Shown: piece after piece, positions 1,875 to 60,248 of the stretch
Position numbering within the stretch: position 1 is the stretch's first letter
Layout of the letters: the number at the start of each line of letters is the position of its first letter
NCBI GenBank assembly: GCA_964016885.1
Contig: OZ024743.1
Coordinates: forward strand, 158,596,001-158,660,000
DNA: 64,000 nucleotides
Reading direction: 5' to 3'
From: Eledone cirrhosa
Lineage: Eukaryota
The notes under the pieces: model-generated
Seen by the model: only the letters and a program-made list of their open reading frames with translations
The model's database searches: none
What the model was told of the DNA's origin: nothing
Position numbers and translations under genes: made by a program

Positions 1875-3353
1875 ACATCATCATCATCATCATCATCATC
1901 ATCGTTTAACGTCCATTTTCCATGCTAGCATGGGTCTGGACGGGAATTGTCCCCTTGAGGCAAGATTGGTTGTCTTGCTCAGGACTGTCTGGCGGGTTTT
2001 CTACGGCTGGATGCCCTTCCTAACACCAACCACGTTTACAGTGTGGACTGGGAGATTTTTACCGTGTTACCTACACGGCCACATTACAGCGTGGACTGTG
2101 TGTTTTATTGTCGTGACACCTACATGTCTGGCGGGTTTTTTACGGCTGGGTGCCCTTCCTAACAACAACCACATTTACAGTATGTACTGGGAGGTTTTTA
2201 CCGTGTTACCTACACGGCCACATTACAGCGTGGACTGTGTGTTTTTTTGTCGTGACACCTACACGACCTCATTTGTTTCGGACTGGATGTTGTGGCACCA
2301 ACATAATTTCACATTTTAGGGGGTGGTGTGGATGGGGTGGGGGTAGTGGGACGAGGGTGTATTTTGTTAGAGGTGCCTACTGACTGTAGGCGGATCTTCT
2401 GTATAACTGTGTAGCGCCAAAGATCTCGGTCCAGTGACATTGTCTTGGAGAGGTGTAAGTGTGTGAGGTCGGAATTTATCAAGTCGTCCCAGGTTTTTCT
2501 GGGTCTGCCTACTCCGTGGCTACCGTCTATTTTTATCGCCCTGCACTTTTTTATACAGCTGTCTTTCATGTGCATCACGTGACCGTACCAACGTAGTCTT
2601 CTCTCGAGTAAACAACATCTGATCCCTCTTATTCCTAATTTCTTAGTTCATTTATGCTTTGCCATTCACGTATATTACTATTACACATCCAGCGGAGCAT
2701 GCAAGCTTCGTTTCTCTCCAGTCTGCGTATATCCTTTGCACACAATGCCCAGGTCTCACTGCCATGTAACATTGCTGTTCGTATGCAGGCATCTTACAGC
2801 CTGCCTTTCATTTTTAGAGAGAACCCTTTAGCGGCCAATAGTGGTATAAGCTCTCTGAACTTTTTCCATCCTGTTCTGACTCTAGCTACTGTACTTTCAG
2901 AGTACCCTCCTCCACTGCTGATTTTATCACCCAGGTAACGGAAGCTGTCCACTATTTCTATAGAACCATCTGTGCAATGGAATGAGCTAGTATTCTGTGG
3001 GCACTTGCTGCTACTTATTGCACCAGAGCACCGGCCACATATAAAATCTATATTCTTAGTTAGCTTACCTGTGATCCCACTACATCTTTTATGCACCCAT
3101 ACTTTGCATTTGGGACATAAAATGGAGTTTCTGCCTACTCCTTTCCTACACACTGAGCATGGCCATTTCCCAGATGGGACCGGTGCCCTATTTTCCTTCC
3201 TACAAACTAGAACTTTAGTCTTAGACAAGTTAACTAAGGCCTTTTGATTCTAGGCCATGCTTCCATGTTTGGATTTTCTTCTCTAGTTCCGCCATTGATT
3301 CAGCTATGAGTGTTAGATCATCTGCATATAGGAGTTCCCATGGGCAGCCGGTC
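1875..3353 (-). mobile_element. 5'-truncated RTE-clade LINE (RT C-terminus with PHD-like finger, 3' UTR, (GAT)n tail)
   Basis: Minus strand has ELLYADDL, then SKTKVLVC...CSVC...HKRC...CGRC...FRYLGDKISSGGG...ARVRTGWKKFREL, LRWYGHV and GRPRKTW. The tail is (CAT)n on + at ~1876-1902. A ~138-bp tandem duplication lies in the 3' UTR (~1987-2262). Confidence 0.9.
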
Positions 3354-11257: not shown

Positions 11258-11804
11258 GCTCTAAGTGCTTGGCAAAGATTATTGTGTAGATAATTGTGGC
11301 CTTAGGTGATGTTTATCTCTCCAGGCTTTTGACATACATGACAGATGCTGAGAGATTTATCATGTCTCTATAGAATTATGGCTTCTACAGTGGGTGAAAT
11401 AGGGATGGAAAGTGGGTTGTTGATTATCTTCTTCCTCTTACTGAGGAGCTGAACATTAATATTATGTCAAGGAGCAGGGTGAGGAGGTAGATGAGAGGGG
11501 GGGGGGGGAAAGGGCATGGAGAGAGAGACGGGGGGAGGGGGAGTCCAAGTTCAAGAGAGATGTAATAATACAAAGGAAAATAAGAATTAATAGAGGTGGG
11601 GATTTTTCTAAAGAGAAACCTGATATTTTAGCTTGCAAAATAAGTGTTTTTTATACATATAATACTAAACTTATACTTTCTGATGCACATGTATGTATGT
11701 ATGCATATATATATATGCAAAGGTAAACAGAAATAACAAAGCAAACAACACAGTAAAATGAAGAAATATTTTATTAGTTTTACACTTGATATAGTAGGAA
11801 AAGA

Positions 11805-11838
11805 GTCTTAACGTTTCAGACGCTAGTCCTTCATCAGA
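11805..11838 (-). ncRNA. Minimal Penelope-type hammerhead ribozyme motif (degenerate)
   Basis: Minus strand reads CTGATGA A GGAC TAGC GTCT GAAA CG TT AAGAC. The core is intact and stem II is GGAC/GTCT; stem I is weak and abuts the CR1 insertion. Confidence 0.5.
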
Positions 11839-11841
11839 ATG

Positions 11842-12831
11842 CCACAGTACTGAAATATGCAGATGACATCAAGCTGTACCTTGAAATCAAAAGGACAGAT
11901 CCTGAAATCTATAACTCTTTCCTACAATCAGACCTGGACACAATGCAGCAATGGATCACAGACTGGCAACTGAAGCTGGCTGTGGACAAATGTACCACCA
12001 TGCATTTTGTGAAGAAAAATCCAGCGTCCATTTACTCCCTCCACAACACTGATATCAAGAAGTCCTCTTGTGAATGTGACCTGGGCATTACTTTCAGCAG
12101 CGATTTGCGTTGGACAAAGCACGTCTCTAAAATTGTCAAGAAGGCCGAGGGTGTCTTGGCATCACTCAGCAAAACCTTTGTTAGCCGCTCTCCAGCCATC
12201 TATTTAAAGCTGTATACAGCTATGGTACGACCACACTTGGAATTCGCATCATCAGTTTGGAACTCCTATCTTGCTCAGAACATTGACTTCCTGGAAACTG
12301 TGTTCAGAGACGTGCAACCAAGCGCATACCCTCCATCAAACACCTACCATACTCTAAACGCCTTGCTTCCCTGGGCATGGATTCATTGAAGCTCCGACGT
12401 CTGGCAATGGACTTGGTAAACACCCACAAAGTTATTAACCATCTCGCCAACAACAACCCTGAGCACCTTTTTGATTTCCATGTGTCTAACACACGTAGAC
12501 ATGCCTACAAAATCAGAAAACAGCACAGCTCCCACGACTTTCGGAAACATTTTTTCATGCTTATAGTTGCTGAAGCATGGAACAAACTACCTGTGTCAGT
12601 TGTTAGCTGCTGAGACACTGCATCCTTTAAAACCTCCATGCTTCCCGAAATTCGCCAAAACTACACCTGATGTCCCCCTTCCATACACATGCACACATGT
12701 GTATATCATGACTCATGCACTGTTCATTTTCCTGACGTTTGTACATTACCCTATGTACTATACATACACTTTTGATGAGTTGTAGTGCACCTGAGCACTG
12801 TACACAATATTTTCATTATTATTATTAAGAT
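11842..12831 (+). mobile_element. 5'-truncated CR1-group LINE (RT C-terminus, 3' UTR, (ATT)n tail)
   Basis: LKYADDIKLY...LQSDLD...DLGITFSSDLRWTKHV...LYTAMVRPHLEFASSVW...AWNKLP. (ATT)n tail at ~12815-12826. Possible AGAATG TSD at 11836-11841 and 12832-12837. Confidence 0.9.
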
Positions 12832-13490: not shown

Positions 13491-13958
13491 TCACAAACAT
13501 TTTTTTGAACCACGCCACCTATATCCACAAAACGTAAAAACACCACACACACGTGCGTACCCCCACATAGATACATACTCACCCTCCGAAACCCTCCCCC
13601 ACCCCTCTGACCCCGCTCCATACACACGCACACAACACCGACCTACACCCCACCCCACACACACCTTTTCCTGAACATGGAACCTCGTTCTTCCCCCAAC
13701 TCTCACATACACACACCTACACACATACACCACCTTCAGCCCTCACCGCTCGGACACCCCGCCTCCCTCTCCCCACTCCACCTGCCACCGCCCCTACACC
13801 CCCACACCCTTCCACCACTTGTTTATCTTCATGTTTATTTTTATTTTTATTATTTTTATTTTTATTTTGTACCCCTTCCACCCCCCCCTTTTTTTTTTCT
13901 AAATGTCTCTCCTCCACTCCCCTACACCCTCGGAACTCTCTTCCCACCCACTTTTCGC

Positions 13959-13984
13959 CCGAAGAAGAGCTTATGCCCGAAACG
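13959..13984 (+). ncRNA. Degenerate Penelope-type hammerhead motif
   Basis: CCGAAGA A GAGC TTAT GCCC GAAA CG equals CTGAAGA A GAGC TTAT GCTC GAAACG with two T>C changes; probably inactive. Confidence 0.4.
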
Positions 13985-14071
13985 CCCCCCCCCCCACTCT
14001 CAAGAGCGTGAAACTAATAAACCTTTGTTCGTACTGCCTCTCTGTTTAGTTCCCGTTCCATTTTTCACTAT

Positions 14072-14703
14072 AATTTAAGTAAGAAAAAAAATTTTTAAAA
14101 ATTTTTTTAAAAAAATATTTTCTTATTTTACGTCCTTTATATTATTGTTCTGCATTCTCCTGCATTGAACCACCTAGGTACTATGACATAACCTGTGTAT
14201 TTGCTGGCATGGGCGTACATCTGTGCGCTTATGTTAGTTGATATATTAAATTATCTATATTTATCTCCAATTCACTGATTTGTCGAGCAAACTTGTCAAA
14301 ACCACTTCTAAAAAAATTTTTTTTTTTTTGGGGTGTTAGTAGGCGTCAGTCATCTTACCATCCCATTCCTTCTAACTAGCCTCTGTGTCACGTGATTGAT
14401 TCTTTAGAATCGGCCATTTGACTTGAAGCAGTGAGAATTTCGGTACATAGAATCCAGTCCTCGCAAGCTGTTCGATCTACCGAATTATTATTATTTTTAT
14501 ATGAGCCGCCAGTGTCCGCGCATTGCCTGGAGACTTAACTGAGAATAGACTTCCTGATGACGCAATGAATTCTCGACAGTTGGATTACGTAACTGTCTTT
14601 ATCCCATTGCAGAAACTAATTAGTTGGAGTGAAAATTTAAGTAAGAAAAAAATTTTTTTTAAATTTTTTTAAAAAAATATTTTCTTATTTTACGTCCTTT
14701 ATA
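14072..14703 (+). mobile_element. ~562-bp hammerhead-bearing unit with ~70-bp terminal direct repeat (PLE pseudo-LTR or retrozyme-like)
   Basis: AATTTAAGTAAGAAAAAAAATTTTT...TATTTTCTTATTTTACGTCCTTTATAT occurs at 14072-14142 and again at 14634-14703. The hammerhead ends just before the second copy, which is followed by (TA)n. Confidence 0.7.
14549..14630 (+). ncRNA. Type I hammerhead ribozyme with extended stem II (HHR-A)
   Basis: Stem I ACTTC/GGAGT; CTGATGA at 14554-14560; stem II GCAATG/CATTGC enclosing hairpin GACAGTT/AACTGTC; GAAA at 14612-14615; palindromic stem III CTAATTAG; GUU triplet. Confidence 0.75.
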
Positions 14704-14765
14704 TATATATATATGTAGATAAATCTACCAAGAGTTTACGGTAGTGTCCAATCCGTATGAAGAAC

Positions 14766-18304: not shown

Positions 18305-18914
18305 TTGATATATTTCTTTTTTCTTTTTCTTTTTCTTTTCTTTTCTTTTTATTTCTAAGTTTATAGATACATCTATAAATAAGCAGTCTGCCCAATCCGT
18401 TGAATACTGACCTCTCCCCCCCCCCTCCCACCTAATTTCTGTATCTTGATCTAAATGTGTGTGGCAGTGTTTATGTGAGTGAATTAATATCCATGTGCTT
18501 ATGATAATATTATATCCACATATATATGTGTGTGGGGGTGTGTGTGTGTATGTATGTTCGTAATTATGTGTATGTTTATGCATATACGCGCGCGTGTCTG
18601 TGGGTGTACGGATATGTGTGAGTATGAGAATATGTGTATACACTTATTTCATATTTATGTGTCTATACGCATTTTATCTGTGGATTTAAACTTACAGAGA
18701 CATTAGCCTTGAATTTTTGTATTTGCATACATCTTTTTGGCATGCGTATGCATGTTGAGCATATATCTTTGTATAAATATGTGTACGGGGTTAGTTACAT
18801 GTATATACACACACAAAACTGCATAAAACTTTTTGTATTTTCATTGGTCAATTTTGAACTCCGTTCCCAAACTGACCTGAAATTTTGAATTGTTGTTATT
18901 ATCAATAAATATAT

Positions 18915-19059
18915 TTCATTATTTCTGAAGACGGCATATATGTGTGTTTGGTATGTATATTTAATCTTGATAGTTTGTATAATTTTGTACATAGATCTGT
19001 TGAATATGCATGCCAATTCTAACACATATATATCCTAGAAACGATCGTTAAATAATGAA
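18915..19059 (+). ncRNA. Type I hammerhead ribozyme with ~106-nt stem-loop II (HHR-B)
   Basis: Perfect 10-bp stem I TTCATTATTT/AAATAATGAA; CTGAAGA at 18925-18931; stem II ATATATGTGTGTT/AACACATATATAT and TGGTATGTATATTTAA/TTGAATATGCATGCCA (G-U pairs); GAAA at 19038-19041; palindromic stem III CGATCG; GUU triplet. Confidence 0.85.
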
Positions 19060-19133
19060 CTTTTTTTGTTTAATATAAGGAACTGTTTCATTGTTTTATT
19101 CATTATTTGTTTTATATATATATATATATATAT

Positions 19134-19461
19134 ATACGATATTAACAAATGGAAACTATATTTATAAAACCATATTTATTTCATTATACATATTTCAAGG
19201 GCACCAAGTTAAATTATGGTGTGCTTTCATCAGACAAAATATAATATAGATCAGTTTTATAAATAAATATTGACATACCCTTAAAAAATGCAACCATTAC
19301 TGTTCCAACAGTAATGGTATGTCAATATTTATTTATAAAACTGATCTATATTATATTTTGTCTGATGAAAGCACACCATAATTTAACTTGGTGTTCTTGA
19401 AATATGTATAATGAAATAAATATGGTTTTATAAATATAGTTTCCATCTGTTAATATCGTAT
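19134..19461. repeat. 146-bp near-perfect inverted repeat (19134-19279 / 19316-19461) with nested central hairpin; inverted PLE pLTR
   Basis: The arms are reverse complements with about 3 mismatches. The spacer contains ACCATTACTGTT-CC-AACAGTAATGGT. The whole insertion (19134-19548) is flanked by (TA)n. Confidence 0.95.
19354..19418 (+). ncRNA. Type I hammerhead motif (HHR-C); mirror copy on - strand at 19177-19241
   Basis: Stem I TATTTTGT/ATGAAATA (G-U pairs); CTGATGA at 19362-19368; stem II AAGCACACCA/TGGTGTTCTT; GAAA at 19399-19402; stem III TATGTA; AUA triplet. Confidence 0.7.
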
Positions 19462-19545
19462 GTTTACTCCAAATACTTGTTGAGTGCTTTATATCAGTTA
19501 TAAAAATATTTGTTTGTTGTATCCCAACAATTTAAATAGAACTTT

Positions 19546-33930: not shown

Positions 33931-34109
33931 TATAATTGTTTCTACTTTAGGCACAAGGCCAGAAATTACCCAGTGCATTACTGGTACCTTATTTTATCGA
34001 CCCCGTAAGGATGAAAGGCAAAGTCAACCATAGCGGGATTTGAACTCAGATCGTAAAGGGACGTAACTCTATGCTTCAAAGCATGGCGTCCGACCCTCTA
34101 CCGATAATG
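33931..34109 (-). mobile_element. Young tRNA-derived SINE, family A
   Basis: 20-bp TSD TTAGAGAATAGTTAATATAA (33911-33930 / 34110-34129); B-box GAGTTCAAATCCC; body GCCTTTCATCCTTACGGGGTCGATAAAATAA. Confidence 0.9.
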
Positions 34110-41166: not shown

Positions 41167-43467
41167 TTGTTTCTTTTATTTGCCACCAGGGCATCAAAAG
41201 TGGGACAAGTACAATGGGGGGAGTTTACAAAACAAGGTGTCCTCAATAAGGAGGAGGCAATAACAATATATAAAAATAAAATAAAATATAACAAAAAATA
41301 AAATTTATAACAAAGTCCTCAATAGAGAGGAGGCGCCTTGGGAGGTCGCACACACCCCCGAAAAAAGTGTGCAACCCTTCTCCTCAGGAGCACAGAGAAG
41401 GGGTGCTCCCTTGGTCTTTCATCTTCCTCACCTATAGTCTGATGTAGAGTGAAGGCCCATTCACACGGGCCATTCTCGCCACTTTCACCCATCTTTCATA
41501 GAAACGGCTGGGGTGCAGCACCTCTCTCTCCATCCTGATCCTTCTTCCGAAATGATATCGGAAGAAACGGACCAGTCGTTGGCCAGAGAGAAAGGTGTCT
41601 GACCTCAGTCCTTTCAGATGCGTCCACCATACAACCTCTTTCGCCATGGCTATTACGCACAGAAACACCGCCTCTCCTTCGTTTTTGAAGAGGGGAGGCG
41701 GCTTGATCGTTACAATAGACTCGGTGGTCAACCGGATCGGTCCCACCCTTGACAGCAGTTGTTCGACATAGCCCCACAGATCGGCAATGCCCAAGCAGTG
41801 TACCAATGCGTGTGCAACGGTTTCCTCATCGCACACGCATCTGGGACAGATCTTTTTCGATGGGTCCCTACCCGGGCGCCCGTGTCTGTAGAGCCTTTCT
41901 CGAATGGTGAGACGAGTCTGGGAAAGGCTCGCCTCACAAACGGGGCCCACACCGGTTGACCGGAGAGGAATACCTGTAGGTGCCGTAGCCTTAATGTGTG
42001 TTTACTATCATCAGCCACGGCATCCCCAGCCCTCCTTTCGAAGGGTGTTGACAGCAGATGGATCTCCTCACTATAGGAGCCCGCTTCTTCCAAAGGAATT
42101 GGAAGAGTGCGCGCTCCATTTTGGCGAGCGTTTCCCTTGGGCAAGGCACAACGGTCTGGCGGTAGTAGATGACGGACGCTATATAAGTGTTCGCCACCTC
42201 CGCCCGACCTTTCAGGGACAGTTTGCACTCGGCCCACTTCTGGGTCAGTGAAAACACCCTGTTTGTCACCTCACCCCAGTTCTTCTCCACCTGGAGGTCT
42301 GGTCCGAACCAGACCCTGAGCAACTTCACCGGGCCCCCCGTCCAGCGCCCGACGACGCCATCGGAGGGCATCGATCTGCCCCTCCACGTGCCGAGTTGCA
42401 GACCGATCAACTTGTCCCGGTTCAGCTTAGCCCCTGTAAACCTTTCGTACTCCTCCAGTAAGGTGTCGATCGCCCCGATTTCCGAGGCCGTCGACACCAT
42501 TACTGTCACATCATCGGCGTAGGCTGACACCGCTTTCCGCAATCCCGGTTCCAACGGGATGCCCTGCAACAACTCCAACTTCCGCAGCAGTGGCTCTAGA
42601 GTCATTACATACAGAAGGGAGGAGAGAGAGCACCCCTGTCGGATGGACCGCGCGATTTCGAACGGCTCCGAGAGGTAGCCGTTCACCTTGACCCTAGAGC
42701 AGATGTGGCTGCTGTGCATGGCATTGATCCAGCCCCTGAAAACGGGTCCGAAGCCTGCCGCCGCTAGCACCGCATCCAGGTAACCATGGTCGACCCTATC
42801 GAATGCCTTAGATTGATCCAAGATGATCAGGGCCCCACCAAAGCCGGGTTCGTTCCCAACCCTCTCTATGATGTATCGCATGAGGTGGAGGTTATCGTGG
42901 ATGGACCTGGACGGGATAGCACATGTCTGCGCATCTCCCACCAGGTTGCCCACGACAAGCGCCAACCTCTTTGCTAGCACCTTGGCCAAAATCTGTAACT
43001 CTGTATTTAGCAGAGTTATGGGCCTGAAATTATTTATATCGTCCCCCTTGTTCTCGTCCTTCCTCACTAGCGTGACTACGCCCTTGGTCACAGCACAAGG
43101 AATTCTCCCGTTCTGTTGCCAGTTGCAGTAGACCGCCTCGAGGAGATCGGGGAACAAGTCCGGCATAGCTAGATATAGTTCGTATGGAAGACCATCGAGA
43201 CCCGGGGATTTGCGTTTGCCGCATTGGCTCAGCACGTCCTCTATCTCAGCGGCTGAAATCGGCTCCTCGCAGGACTTCGCTTCCCTGTCCGAGAGACGCG
43301 GCAGGCCGTCGAGGTATGGACCGAAGTCCACGTCCCCAACCGGCCCCCCGCCCCCTCCGAACAATCCGGCAAAGTGCTTTTGAAAAGCCTCACACATCTG
43401 CTTAGGTTCAAGGATCACCCGTCCATCCTGGTCTCGCAAAGACCGGATAGTGGATCTGCTCCCTCTT
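41167..43467 (-). mobile_element. 5'-truncated L1/Tx1-clade LINE with 482-aa RT ORF and C-terminal CCHC finger
   Basis: ORF 41991-43439 contains KSPGLDG, RPITLLN, LDQSKAFDRV, RQGCSLS and AYADD; downstream CPRCVCDEETVAHALVHC. A-rich 3' end. GC-rich relative to the host sequence. Confidence 0.92.
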
Positions 43468-44344
43468 GGTATATATATATAGATAGATAGATAAATATAT
43501 TAGTATCAACTCTAGTTTATACTTGGTCTTAAAATATTTAGTAAATGTAAAATTTAGAGTACAACTTTGAATAGACAAATTTGAGTATCTAAATATTAAT
43601 CTAATCTTTCCCAGTACGGTCTCAGAGGTCCTGTAAAATGGCCATCTATGCTGTGCAAAGCAATACAGAAACAGAATGAATATTTAGAAGAAAGAATATT
43701 TAGCCATCTCACAAATGCTATATTGCAGACATGTCTGACCTATGTTAGCTTGCAAACATGAATATTCAAATTTTAATTATGATGATAAAGATGATGCTGA
43801 TGATGCTTGAAGTGCAATGTAGTAATATCCTCATTATCAAAATAATGTTTATTTTGCATGATTAGAATGGATACATTATTCCTTCTGCAGATAGTGTTTC
43901 AGTGAAATACTTTATTCCACTAATCTTCAAAGTGGATTAATACTGAATTCTACTAAAGGTTAAATCTTAAAGGTCATGACTAATTGATCTTTGTGCATTG
44001 GTGTGAAATGTCAGCAGTTTTGGCAAAAACAAAAAAAAACTGTATATATATATATGCTGCTTCAGACTGTGAACGTCTTGTGTCAGTTTAATGCAAGGAA
44101 CTGCTCTGGCAATATATACTTGTATTTGCCTACATAATATGCATTTTAGTATATGTGTGTATCTGGATTCAGTGGGCCTGTTTTTATTTTCTGCCTCAAA
44201 TTCATGCTTATAATGTCTAATATCACTTTGCATGCACATGCACGTGCATGCGCATGCACACACACACACATAGATGATTGTGTATTTTTTTTTTTGGTAG
44301 TGCATGTGGTTCAGGGCAAGGTAAAAAGAGTAAGCTATTAGGGG

Positions 44345-48637: not shown

Positions 48638-49326
48638 CTAGCAGAAAAAACCACCCATCGGGTGGTTTTCTGCTAGCATGTGTAGTGTGTCTATTGATAT
48701 TATACGCAAGTATATATACATGTAGATATGATACATCAAATAAAATCATAATTGACAATATATAATACATAGAAATTGAGTGAAGACTACGTTACACTGT
48801 CTTATGTAATCAGTAACTGAAACCTATTATACATTAAAAAAGATGATATTATATATAAACTGCATTAAGAGAAAATTAGTGACAGAAAATTAATGTTTAT
48901 TTAAGCGATTGCCAACCAGAAGTGTTGACACTTCATAAATTTTAAAGAAGTGAATCTTAAAATAAACAAAATATATTTAATCAATAGCCACGAAATTTAG
49001 TAGATAAATTATGTAATATTCATTCATTATTTATTCAAAGTAATGAGCGGTGAATTGGCAGTATCGGTAGAGGGTTGGACGCCATGCTTTCTAGCATAGT
49101 TACGTCCCTTTACAGTCTGAGTTCAAATCCCGCCGAGGTTAACTTTGCCTTTCATCCTTATGGGGTCGATAAAATAAAGTACCAGTAATGTACTGGGTAA
49201 TTGCTGGCCTTGTGCCTAAAGTAGAAACAATTATTTATTCAAAATAATCCAACTTATTTTACTAATGGGATAAAAAAATTATAAATCTTACGCAGTCCCG
49301 CGCTCCTCCCTTTATTATAGTTTAGA
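48638..49326 (-). mobile_element. Non-autonomous Helitron, copy 2 (interrupted by a SINE)
   Basis: Minus strand reads A|TCTAAACTATAATAAAG ... hairpin AAAACCACCCGATGGGTGGTTTT ... CTAG|T. It is inserted between A and T with no TSD. Confidence 0.85.
49045..49229 (+). mobile_element. Young SINE family A inside the Helitron
   Basis: 19-bp TSD ATTATTTATTCAAA(G/A)TAAT (49026-49044 / 49230-49248). Confidence 0.9.
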
Positions 49327-54700: not shown

Positions 54701-55365
54701 CTAATATAAGAGTAAGCCCATTATTGTCTAGTTCAGAAGGATGAAATCAAATTTGACCTTGGAGAGATTTGAACACAGGACATAAAAAATTGTAACTAGA
54801 TACTGCTCTAATGATTCTGGCAATCCACTACCCTCAATGATGATGATGGTGATGATAATTATGATGATATTGCTGACGATGGAGCACAAAGCTTAGGATT
54901 GTGAAGGAGTGAACAGTTGATTAATTCATCCCCAGTTGACTGAATGCCCATGAGTCAACAAGGGAATCCCTATGAACTTATTTCACTTGAAATAACTACC
55001 AATTCTCCCTTAAGTCACACCATACCATCCTAAAAATAGAGTACACATTGGATAGATTGATGATGGAATGATCATGGCTGGATTGCCTTTGATCATTGGT
55101 TTGCTCAAAGCTCATTCAACATCAGCTTCTACTGTTTTACTGAATGTGAGATAAAAGACAAATTCTACCTCAGCAGGATTTGAAATCAGAAAATAAAAGG
55201 CTGTAAATAAAACCATTAGCAAGACTAACTTTTTATTAATTTTGTCATCCACTGCCTCCTCCCTGTTTACTTAACATTATTCCTATTATTTAACGACACC
55301 CAATAATATTTTAATTACATAATACCAGATGTAATAGACATTGACTCTGATGTTATTGTTATAAC

Positions 55366-55546
55366 TGTTTCTACTTTAGGCACAAGGCCAGCAATTACCC
55401 AGTGCATTACTGGTACTTTATTCTATCGACCCCGTAAGGATGAAAGGCAAAGTCAACCTCGGCGGGATTTGAACTCAGATCGTAAAGGGACGTAACTATG
55501 CTGGAAAGCATGGCATCCGACCCTCTACCGATACTGCCAATCCACC
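55366..55546 (-). mobile_element. Young SINE family A
   Basis: 15-bp TSD TGTTATTGTTATAAC. Confidence 0.9.
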
Positions 55547-57017
55547 TGTTATTGTTATAACAGTTGCTGATATTTTAATTGTCAGATCAACCTTGATTGA
55601 ACAGAGTTAGGATTAAAGCATTTCTAGTGTTGAACATCCTGTTTAGGTCTACATTATCTAAAGTACTCACCCTTTATTTAAGAAGATAGGAGTGTCTTTT
55701 TTCAGATTATGTGGGACATTATCTACTTTCCTGACCCAAGATGGTAGATTATGATTTGAGGGAGAATTGGCAGTAATTTCAAGTGAAGTAAGTTTATAGA
55801 TTGCCTCAATGACTCATAGGCATTCAGTCAACTGGGGATGACTTAATCAACTGTTCACTCTTATCTCCTTAAATAAAAGAGATGCTACTGTTATTTCTAG
55901 CAGGTTGATTGACCATGAGGAGGCTCTTTACTGTTAGTTAGATGATGATAATGACTGAATAAAGTATTGCACTTCCAACTCATATCTCTTGAGTGCAAAT
56001 CAACATCTAGTATTTCATTGTATATCAAAATATTTTATTCTTTATATTTTCTCACTCATTACCTAGCTATAGGGGTATAAACAACTGATATAATGAGAAA
56101 AAAATCATTTATCTATTTCAAGGAGGGACCCATATTATCAGTGAATGGATTAGTGTCAGGACACCTCACTAGCCAACTTGCTTTACAGACAAACTGGTGC
56201 TTTATATATTTGTTTCTACTTTAGGCACAAGGCCAGCAAATACCCAGTTCATTACTGGTACTTTATTTTATCGACCCCAGACAGTCATCTATCTTTATAC
56301 ATACTGGTGCAAGTATGTATGTACAATGCACATACATGAGTTAAGTAATGTTGTTGACATTAAAAGACTGTTTGTCAGGACACATCATGGTTTTATCATA
56401 CATACACATACATCCACAAACAAATATATATACACACACACACCTCTTTAATACGGCAGACATATAGATCATTAACTGTTGTTCTTGTTTAACCATAGGT
56501 TAGCCATGATTGAACAGGTTTATGATCAAGCACATCCTGTCTTTCTCAGATTATGTAGGACATTATCTACTGACTCCTTTCCTTACCCAAGATGGTAGAT
56601 TATGATTTCAGAGAGACTTGGCTGCTATTTCTAGCAGGTTGTGCGACAACATAAAGGCTCCTTCACTGCTTGTGACTTCCTCATTGGCTTAGGTCATAGA
56701 CAGTATTAAAACACACAACAGTTATAGAAGAAACCAAAAATATAAAGCACACACACACACACACACATTTAATATTTTATGTTTTATTTTATTTTAAAAT
56801 CTTCATAATAGTTGATTGTGAATCGTTTTAGATTATTTTATGAACTTATGAAACAAATAATAACAGATGATTAAATCCTCTTCACTGTTTATCCTAATAG
56901 TGGCCAGATATTCTTCTGGTAGGTTAGGAGTTAAGTGAAGTGACTTGCTTTAGCTTGCAATCTTATGCAATTACATTCTGTTGTCACTTAAACAATCCAG
57001 TCATTATTTATGTTGTT

Positions 57018-57195
57018 GGATTGGCAGTATCGGTAGAGAGTTGGACGCCATGCTTTCCAGCATAGTTACGTCCCTTTACGGTCTGAGTTCAAATCCCGTC
57101 GAGGTTAACTTTGCCTTTCATCCTTACGGGGTCGATAAAATAAAGTACCAGTAATGTACTGGGTAATTGCTGGCCTTGTGCCTAAAGTAGAAACA
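57018..57195 (+). mobile_element. Young SINE family A
   Basis: 15-bp TSD ATTATTTATGTTGTT. Confidence 0.9.
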
Positions 57196-58129
57196 ATTAT
57201 TTATGTTGTTTTTCACAGCTTGTTATTACTGTTTACAGTGCTTGCTGGCATCATTGTTGTTGTTGCTTTTGTGACAGTAGTTGTTGTTGTTATAAGCCCA
57301 ACCCAGGACAGACTTTGTCAATGAGATCTATGATCAAAGATGTTCCAGCAGTGAAGTACATCATCAGACATAGAATGTCTAAGACTACATCATTTAATGT
57401 GTGCTAGCTTTTAATAAAATTAATAGTAGCAGTATTGCATTGTATCATAAGCCCCTTCGGTCACTAGTGACCATAGTTTTGCACCTAGAATGTTCCTCTC
57501 CAAGGCACAAGCCTTGGCAAGGTATGATTGTAGAAGACCAGCAGTCACCCATGCATATCAGTCTCCCCTCTCTACGCTACTGATATTGTCCAATGGAAAG
57601 GCAATGGCTTATGATACAACTTGGCATCAGTGACATCGCAACTCATTTCTGCAGCTGAGTAAACTGGAGCAACGTGAAATAAAGTGTCTTGCTCAAATAT
57701 ACAACACATCACTCAGTCTGAGAATTGAACTCTCAACCTCCTGATTGCAAACCCAACTCTCTAACCACAAAGCCATATGTGTTCACTATAGTAGCAGTAG
57801 TTAGTTTTTTAGTTAGTAAGTTGTTGTTGTTGCTAGTAGTAGTAGAAGTAGTAGTAGTAATGGCTGTTCTTGTTTAGCCTAGGTCAGCCTTGAATGATGA
57901 ATGAGTTGCAGCTTTGAGCATCCTTATCTTTTTGGGGGAATAGTGTTCCCACTACCATATACAATACACAGTGTCTCCTGCTTTAAAACAGTAGTGTGTG
58001 CTTTATTGAAGATTTAACTATTGTTTCTAGCTATTTCTCAGAAGTCAAGTAACAACTTAGATGCTCCTTAATTGTAGTATTGATAGTGGTTCTATATGTG
58101 CTTCTGAATCTGGTTTCAGATGTGAGTTG

Positions 58130-59259: not shown

Positions 59260-60062
59260 GTAAGGTAGTCAGAAGAATTAAAACAAAACAAAAGAAAACA
59301 AGCAGAACAGGAAAATTAGAAAATATTCTGTTAATACTACCACTAATAATGATAATTGTTCTAACATAATCACAAATGCAGAAATCTTGGGAGAGGAGCT
59401 AGTTGATTAAATGGAGCCAAGAACTTGTTTCTAATTTAGGGACAGGAACAGCAGTTTTTCTTTTTTTTGAGGGGGAATGTTGATTAGATCAACCTCGGTA
59501 CATGACTGGTACTTTAATTTATCGACTCTAGAAGGATGAAAGGCGAAGTTGACATAGGAGAAATTTGAACTCAGACTGTAAAGAGCAAGAATATTGCAAG
59601 ACATTTTGTTGAAAACTCTTATAAAGAATAATAATAATAATGATAATAATAATAGTAGCAGTAGTAGTAGTAATGGTGTAACTAATGGTTTACAGGCTTA
59701 TGGCTTTGTGGTTTGAGCATTGGGCTTGCAATTGGGAGTTGTGAGTTTGATTCTTGGACTGTGTGATGTGTTGTGTCCTTGAGCAAGATACTTTATTTTA
59801 CGTTTCTCCAGTTCACTCAGCTGTAGAAATGAGTTGCGATGTCATTGGTGCTAATCTGTATTGGCCATTGTGTTTTCCTAGGGCAACATCGGTGGCATAA
59901 ATAGGAGAGACTGGCATACATGGGCGACTGTTGGTCTTCCACACACACACACACACACACCTTGCCTAGGCTTGTGTCTTGGAGGGGAATTTTCCAGGTA
60001 CAAAACCATGGTCATTCGTGACCGATGCGGAGCTATGATATGATAGTAGTAATGGTAGTAAT

Positions 60063-60248
60063 AATTGTTTCTACTTTTGGCACAAGGCCAGCAATTACCC
60101 AGTGCATTACTGGTACTTTATTTTATCGACCCCTTAAGGAAGAAAGGCAAAGTTAACCTTGGCGGGATTTCAACTCAGAATGGCAAGGGCCGTAATTCTA
60201 TGCTAGAAAGTATAGCGTCCTACCCTCTACCGATACTGCCAATCCACC
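60063..60248 (-). mobile_element. SINE family A
   Basis: Reverse-complement match to 57018-57195. Confidence 0.85.

Follow-up and report, generated by a model that had tools for sequence, protein, structure and literature searches.

Penelope-like elements (PLEs) carry type I hammerhead ribozymes, for which Cervera and de la Pena (2014) gave the consensus CUGANGAH-G...C-GAAAN-palindrome-NUH with a larger helix II (PMC4209133). Its hallmarks there also include a palindromic helix III, conservation of G10.1-C11.1 and one more base inserted between positions 9 and 10.1. The descriptor makes room for "a possible extra N10" and "a possible extra N11", and non-minimal variants found by hand are also reported (PMC4209133). 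A dimer form driven by the palindrome has been described (PMC6765202). PLE hammerheads cleave poorly in vitro (PMC4209133), and in an in vitro study of an anole PLE catalytic mutations had no effect on insertion, cleavage thus being dispensable there (PMC11167929). The same study has the tail of a PLE insertion set by internal start sites of reverse transcription downstream of the ribozyme (PMC11167929). PLE insertions show inverted 5' parts, and the Naiad/Chlamys clades prefer microsatellites (10.1101/2021.04.23.441226). Animal retrozymes, 51–972 bp in the 2026 survey of Li, Clavereau and Pollet, are argued there to be non-autonomous PLE derivatives, with solo monomers described as derivatives of retrozymes in turn; of nine Xenopus retrozyme dimers, eight did not cleave in vitro (10.64898/2026.07.22.740005).

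The locus considered here, HHR-B, lies in a 64-kb window (the whole stretch of DNA analysed, 64,000 nt) of AT-rich, microsatellite-rich DNA of animal type, probably from an octopus-like genome to judge by a SINE-like family in it. With the published PLE hammerheads it shares the type I form, the extra base between 9 and 10.1, G10.1-C11.1, the larger helix II and the palindromic helix III, as well as U-rich upstream and AU-rich downstream flanks (PMC4209133). It departs from them in a stem II of 49 nt (about 100 nt in a second motif, HHR-A) with internal loops and a possible kissing contact, and, unlike the pseudo-LTR PLE hammerheads, its unit has no ORF (PMC4209133). The reading preferred here, with moderate confidence, is that HHR-B is a PLE-type hammerhead in a likely young, non-autonomous repeat, likely PLE-copied, predicted to cut only as a dimer, and that its extra C and extra A flank G10.1-C11.1, which is intact. 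The A, quite probably a family trait, is predicted to hold the extra C away from the general base G12.

The HHR-B motif and its host repeat

A preliminary description of this DNA had placed an extended hammerhead at 14549–14630, and the position holds: all core parts are present on the plus strand (Table 1), with CUGANGA, GAAA and NUH round a three-way junction and stem I open, as in a type I hammerhead. Judged by its sequence, the motif is real and sits in a short, likely mobile repeat. Its six helices comprise 34 Watson-Crick and two G-U pairs over 36 positions, with zero mismatches. Stem II consists of 6 bp, a 7x7 internal loop, 8 bp and a 7-nt loop, and the self-complementary stretch 14614–14625 covers 12 nt including A14 and U17, or 10 nt from A15.1 to U16.1. 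The fold energy is unexceptional (z -1.62; 12 of 200 shuffles). A structure-aware scan of the window for the core, stem I of at least 5 bp, stem II of at least 6 bp and a self-complementary stem III, with thresholds chosen after the motifs had been seen, returned three loci (14554, 18925 and 19362) and no match in 300 dinucleotide shuffles. None of the 60 Rfam matches in the window is to a hammerhead family, nor is any of the four at 14480–14635 (HHR-B) or the 15 at 18880–19090 (HHR-A); the matches in the window and in both regions were set aside as microsatellite-driven miRNA noise.

Table 1. Coordinates of the hammerhead motifs, the host insertion and the repeat copies used for comparison.
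Feature	Position	Strand	Details
HHR-B, type I hammerhead, PLE type	14549–14630	+	predicted cut after 14625 (GUU)
HHR-B stem I	14549–14553/14626–14630	+	5 bp
HHR-B core	14554–14560	+	CUGAUGA (C3–A9)
HHR-B extra nucleotide after A9	14561	+	C; "extra N10" of the 2014 descriptor
HHR-B stem II	14562–14610	+	49 nt, opened by G10.1-C11.1
HHR-B extra nucleotide before G12	14611	+	A; "extra N11"
HHR-B GAAA, stem III and cut site	14612–14625	+	GAAA 14612–14615; palindromic stem III; GUU 14623–14625
HHR-B distal stem I extension (predicted)	14533–14642	+	14533–14538 pairs with 14637–14642 past an internal loop
HHR-B possible kissing contact	14541–14574	+	6 bp; stem I internal loop 14541–14546 with stem II internal loop 14569–14574
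HHR-B host insertion	14072–14704	+	562-nt ORF-less unit plus 71 nt
Inverted copy at left insertion junction	14062–14069	-	8 nt; matches +3 to +10 counted past the predicted cut
HHR-A, hammerhead	18915–19059	+	10-bp stem I; core CUGAAGA 18925–18931; extra C18932
HHR-A stem II, GAAA, stem III and cut site		+	stem II about 100 nt; U19036-A19037, then GAAA 19038–19041; palindromic stem III; GUU 19047–19049
SINE-like family copies	33932–34109, 49051–49238, 55361–55538, 57017–57204, 60061–60238		5% off majority sequence; control for CpG decay

The host insertion is 1.1 units long, with one ribozyme and no tandem. Its ends form a terminal direct repeat (14072–14142 and 14634–14704, 68 of 71 positions identical), and it stops at a (TA)n tract 74 nt past the cut site. 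The left end corresponds to position +9, 8 nt past the predicted cut, and is preceded by the short inverted copy listed in Table 1, a match equalled in 12 of 9140 windows by a post hoc statistic. No long ORF was found in any of the six frames of the unit. Folded as a 562-nt circle, the unit is predicted to be highly paired (-135.8 kcal/mol, computed without a shuffle control); a strong hairpin at 14182–14232 is one of several in that fold. Within the 64-kb window, blastn detected neither family a second time. Published PLE hammerheads lie in the pseudo-LTR of an element whose ORF carries RT and GIY-YIG; among the 23 ORFs of at least 150 aa in the window, four of which were scanned against Pfam, none of this Penelope kind turned up within the unit or next to it, so that the PLE partner of the element is putative.

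The unit resembles non-LTR animal retrozymes in having no ORF, less than 50% GC, one type I hammerhead and a more-than-unit insertion (PMC7229834; 10.64898/2026.07.22.740005), and the high pairing of its predicted circle is a further likeness. Its size is within the range of the 2026 survey and above the 170–400 nt of the retrozymes in the 2020 paper (PMC7229834). It differs from retrozyme tandems, which have at least two ribozymes, and its ribozyme is of PLE type, not the canonical 6-bp/4-bp retrozyme type.

This copy looks young, since its helices are free of mismatches, its CpGs are kept and its 31-mers are widely shared. CpG observed/expected is 0.85 in the unit (16 against 18.7 expected) and 0.97 in 14320–14633, against 0.33 in the window. 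When 50 31-mers sampled from 14140–14640 were compared with public sequencing runs, 11 of the 24 runs listed shared 0.22–0.72 of them; these 11 represent eight organism codes and seven studies, the best may be the source sample itself, and seven of the 18 matching runs were left out as sharing less than 0.2. Two of the sharing runs are tiny (4 and 88 million letters), and among those listed there is no RNA run. Such sharing points to a repeat present in many copies, which, if divergence is random, differs from its relatives by about 1%. Pattern scans for relatives gave 120 loci in viral contigs (none with stems I and II of at least 4 bp), three matches in metagenome contigs (none with a core upstream) and none for either family in prokaryote genomes; as animal DNA is scarce or absent in these collections, the blanks are uninformative about the family.

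Other features of the window were recorded along the way. Two minimal PLE-type hammerhead motifs lie at 11810–11837 (minus) and 13958–13985 (plus, decayed). In both, an extra A follows the core, GAAA is preceded by no extra base and similar motifs stand downstream; the minus-strand one also has GUU, and the HHR-B insertion directly follows the other. A reverse transcriptase reading frame of 502 aa at 41991–43499 (minus; RVT_1, E 6e-24) is CpG-rich and therefore probably young. This frame and a further fragment at 11790–12389 match RVT_1 only in Pfam, and we take both to be of LINE rather than Penelope type. A 151-aa frame at 2797–3249 (minus) has a PHD finger (E 1.5e-07) and is probably a retroelement fragment.

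Comparison with published PLE hammerheads and with HHR-A

The preliminary description gave five features for HHR-B and HHR-A (C after CUGANGA, A before GAAA, palindromic stem III, GUU and an enlarged stem II) and proposed from them a distinct subtype without the usual R10.1-Y11.1 pair. All five are literally present in both motifs, but in HHR-B the pair is not missing: G14562-C14610 is intact (P 0.98), with a single base between it and A9 and another between it and G12. The C and the A are best read as single extra bases flanking it. "Distinct subtype" was also too strong a term, as four of the five features belong to the published PLE consensus and the fifth, within the descriptor, occurs in one of 56 published rows (PMC4209133).

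These counts come from the 56-row alignment of the 2014 paper, made by hand from a text in which columns are not kept. An extra base follows CUGANGA in 54 rows and is C in 11; GUU occurs in 15 and U17 in 24, while C after the core together with GUU is found in two, Lottia 1 and Patiria (PMC4209133). AGAAA stands in one core entry, by order that of the Cotesia congregata bracovirus PLE, an uncertain assignment; the other 55 have no extra base before GAAA, and an extra G there is found in none (PMC4209133). Neither C10.1-G11.1 nor, as far as the rows are readable, extra C joined with extra A occurs in any of the 56 (PMC4209133). The nearest forms are those with a small palindromic helix III in Drosophila, Aedes, rotifer and shrimp, along with the AGAAA row. 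U17, common in PLE rows generally, is present in all three mollusc rows, of which Lottia 1 reads CUGAUGAC and GUU (PMC4209133).

On the PLE side, both motifs have the extra base after A9 (C14561, C18932), the G10.1-C11.1 pair (G14562-C14610, G18933-C19035) and a dimer-competent palindromic stem III, computed to form self-duplexes of 10 bp (-9.0 kcal/mol) and 8 bp (-10.0 kcal/mol) and no stable hairpin alone. Both fall outside the min-HHR descriptor (helix II of 3–7 bp, loop of 3–10 nt, no loop 3), the limits being exceeded by stem II and loop 3. Taken from sequence comparison, the C after CUGANGA, the palindrome, GUU and the large stem II are already known; what remains new is the extra A joined with the extra C, the length of stem II and the invisibility to Rfam. 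In the literature covered, no hammerheads of this form and no octopus ones were found; repeat libraries and work on small PLE variants could hold such. Small PLE hammerhead variants are reportedly treated by Lunse et al. (2017), and forms of this kind may already be included.

HHR-A had been described without coordinates, and 18915–19059 is the only other motif that fits. CUGANGA-C occurs at just three sites on both strands of the window (37535+, 18925+ and 14554+), of which 37535 has no stems and was rejected as a hammerhead. HHR-A folds much better than its shuffles (z -6.85; 0 of 200), and the favoured register is not the one claimed to be shared with HHR-B: G18933-C19035 and G18934-C19034 are paired (P 0.96) with C18935 bulged, which leaves two extra bases before GAAA (Table 1), and P is about 0.02 for the register in which C faces A. 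The base of its stem II is TA-repeat-like, and slippage may have occurred there. What is common to the two motifs is a C-G after the core, an A preceding GAAAC, and GUU; on this evidence the ribozymes would fit common descent, and they do not establish a separate subtype. Both end 63–74 nt ahead of a (TA)n tract, with three further PLE-type motifs nearby; in HHR-A the distance from cut site to tract is 63 nt, and the tail has no duplicate upstream.

By eye, stem I of HHR-A has its 5' strand repeated some 40 nt past the ribozyme (within 19050–19108), so that the 3' strand has a rival partner, which could switch the ribozyme off or release product. Farther on, an inverted repeat at 19129–19466 (arms 19129–19283 and 19312–19466, 96%) has a hammerhead-like motif in either arm, on the minus strand at 19233 and on the plus strand at 19362; both motifs have an AUA site, and their stem III is nearly palindromic. 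The repeat is likely an inverted arrangement of a third Penelope-type family, inside the TA tract that ends HHR-A.

Predicted dimer, cutting and insertion

As a monomer HHR-B would be off, with CUGAU of the core paired to the stem III loop: this mispairing is predicted with P about 0.7 at 37 C, rising to 0.9 at 20 C, and the P of stem III is at most 0.2. When two copies meet, their palindromes would join and release the core, at a computed -49.4 kcal/mol for the dimer against -39.8 for two monomers, a gain of about 10 kcal/mol. The dimer fold also pairs A14 with U17; this pair would have to open, which should slow HHR-B. A cut after GUU would give the template RNA its 5' end; reverse transcription starting about 75 nt past the next ribozyme would yield an insertion of 1.1 units. 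The left junction may be read as reverse transcription that reached the 5' end of such a ribozyme-cut template.

The two internal loops of HHR-B listed in Table 1 may kiss and act as a tertiary contact, according to their complementarity in the predicted fold (p 0.006 by composition, 0.04 by strand shuffling, both post hoc). The pseudoknot-stabilised hammerheads of Perreault (2011) likewise have a tertiary contact made by base pairs that link parts of stems I and II, a role in which pseudoknots are common among hammerheads; the candidate pairing of HHR-B differs in joining two internal loops (PMC3088659). For HHR-A, a 5-nt match seen by eye about 23 nt upstream of stem I was dropped as chance-level.

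Alternative readings and what the locus would mean

In a bolder version of the preferred reading, HHR-A and HHR-B would form an undescribed, high-copy, Penelope-associated lineage in which the A compensates for the extra C by leaving the general base free, the kissing contact replaces that between loops I and II, and the long stem II hides the ribozymes from Rfam and the published descriptors; as a whole this is tentative and rather doubtful. The closest natural precedent for the extra base is the CChMVd (+) hammerhead, where a base between A9 and G10.1 is natural and active; that is a type III viroid ribozyme in which the base is A and none precedes G12 (PMC1636495, PMC3705267). Replacing this A10 with C is strongly harmful, according to a review (PMC3705267). 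In HHR-B, with the palindrome tied up, removal of A14611 raises the pairing of C14561 with G14612, the general base G12, from P 0.08 to 0.98, a result that is near-trivial for nearest-neighbour folding, which knows no tertiary structure. This and the harm done by C in CChMVd are the grounds, within the preferred reading, for the idea that the extra A would keep the extra C from pairing with G12. Eleven published rows have the extra C and no extra A, among them that of the active D. virilis element (PMC4209133), and the A is thus not needed for spread.

The hammerhead could instead be a passenger, the family being spread by PLE enzymes without cleavage and the oddities of the core having been fixed by drift in a master copy. 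U17 is expected to slow a hammerhead ribozyme. The extra C is expected to do so as well (PMC3705267), and the poor cleavage of PLE hammerheads in vitro (PMC4209133) and the indifference of anole PLE insertion to catalytic mutations (PMC11167929) favour this account. Yet the core bases and helices are all intact in both HHR-A and HHR-B, and the 5' end of the insertion is at most 8 nt from the predicted cut, so the passenger account is improbable.

Decay of a CpG is slightly less probable still. By this account the family has C10.1-G11.1 (CUGAUGA-C...G-GAAA), lost in HHR-B by CG to CA, and in HHR-A likewise in two steps. As the base 5' of A14611 is C, the A could be a decayed CpG; C14610-A14611 is the exact product of one step. 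The process is active in a window depleted in CpG: in the five copies of a SINE-like family, which we take to be an octopus SINE, 8 of 45 CpG cells read CA, TG or TA, and 45 of 852 other sites (5.3%) are changed. Against this stand the CpG content of the unit and its apparent divergence of about 1%, which make a decay hit at A14611 an event of about 5–10%, as well as the lack of the supposed ancestral pair in the published PLE rows (PMC4209133). CpG decay had been offered earlier as an explanation of HHR-A, where it takes two steps; it fits the single step in HHR-B better. On the sequence evidence, the part of the earlier claim that HHR-B does not reflect decay is likely right.

No better placed is the register first proposed, in which C10.1 and A11.1 form a true C-A pair, protonated or sheared, of a separate subtype. 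The C of HHR-B does face the A directly, a 1x1 loop and two bulges being inseparable by secondary structure, and stem II opens with a natural U-U mismatch in one known case (PMC3088659) and with a mismatch in axolotl HHR_Amex2 (PMC7229834). HHR-A, however, does not favour such a register, PLE hammerheads as a rule have an extra base after A9, which may be A, U, C or G, and the published AGAAA entry, an uncertain row, likely has an A after A9 that could not pair in this way (PMC4209133). Least likely is that HHR-B is an ordinary PLE hammerhead in which the A before GAAA is a one-base private insertion or an assembly error, as 55 of 56 rows without an extra base might suggest (PMC4209133), given that A14611 has no run on its 5' side, that the helices are error-free and that HHR-A too has an A before GAAA.

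With the C and A read as bases flanking G10.1-C11.1, the extra A is quite probably a trait of the family. If the family consensus were canonical or C-G, HHR-B would reduce to one more copy of a PLE hammerhead. The 5' junction at the predicted cut bears on the question of in vivo cleavage by PLE hammerheads. Should the A prove to be a family trait, the family would be a natural, amplified test of what the junction of core and stem II can tolerate, with a prediction of epistasis: the extra C alone should be harmful, and the extra A should rescue it. PLE-type hammerheads with a stem II of 50–100 nt would then be escaping standard searches, and counts for invertebrate genomes would be too low.
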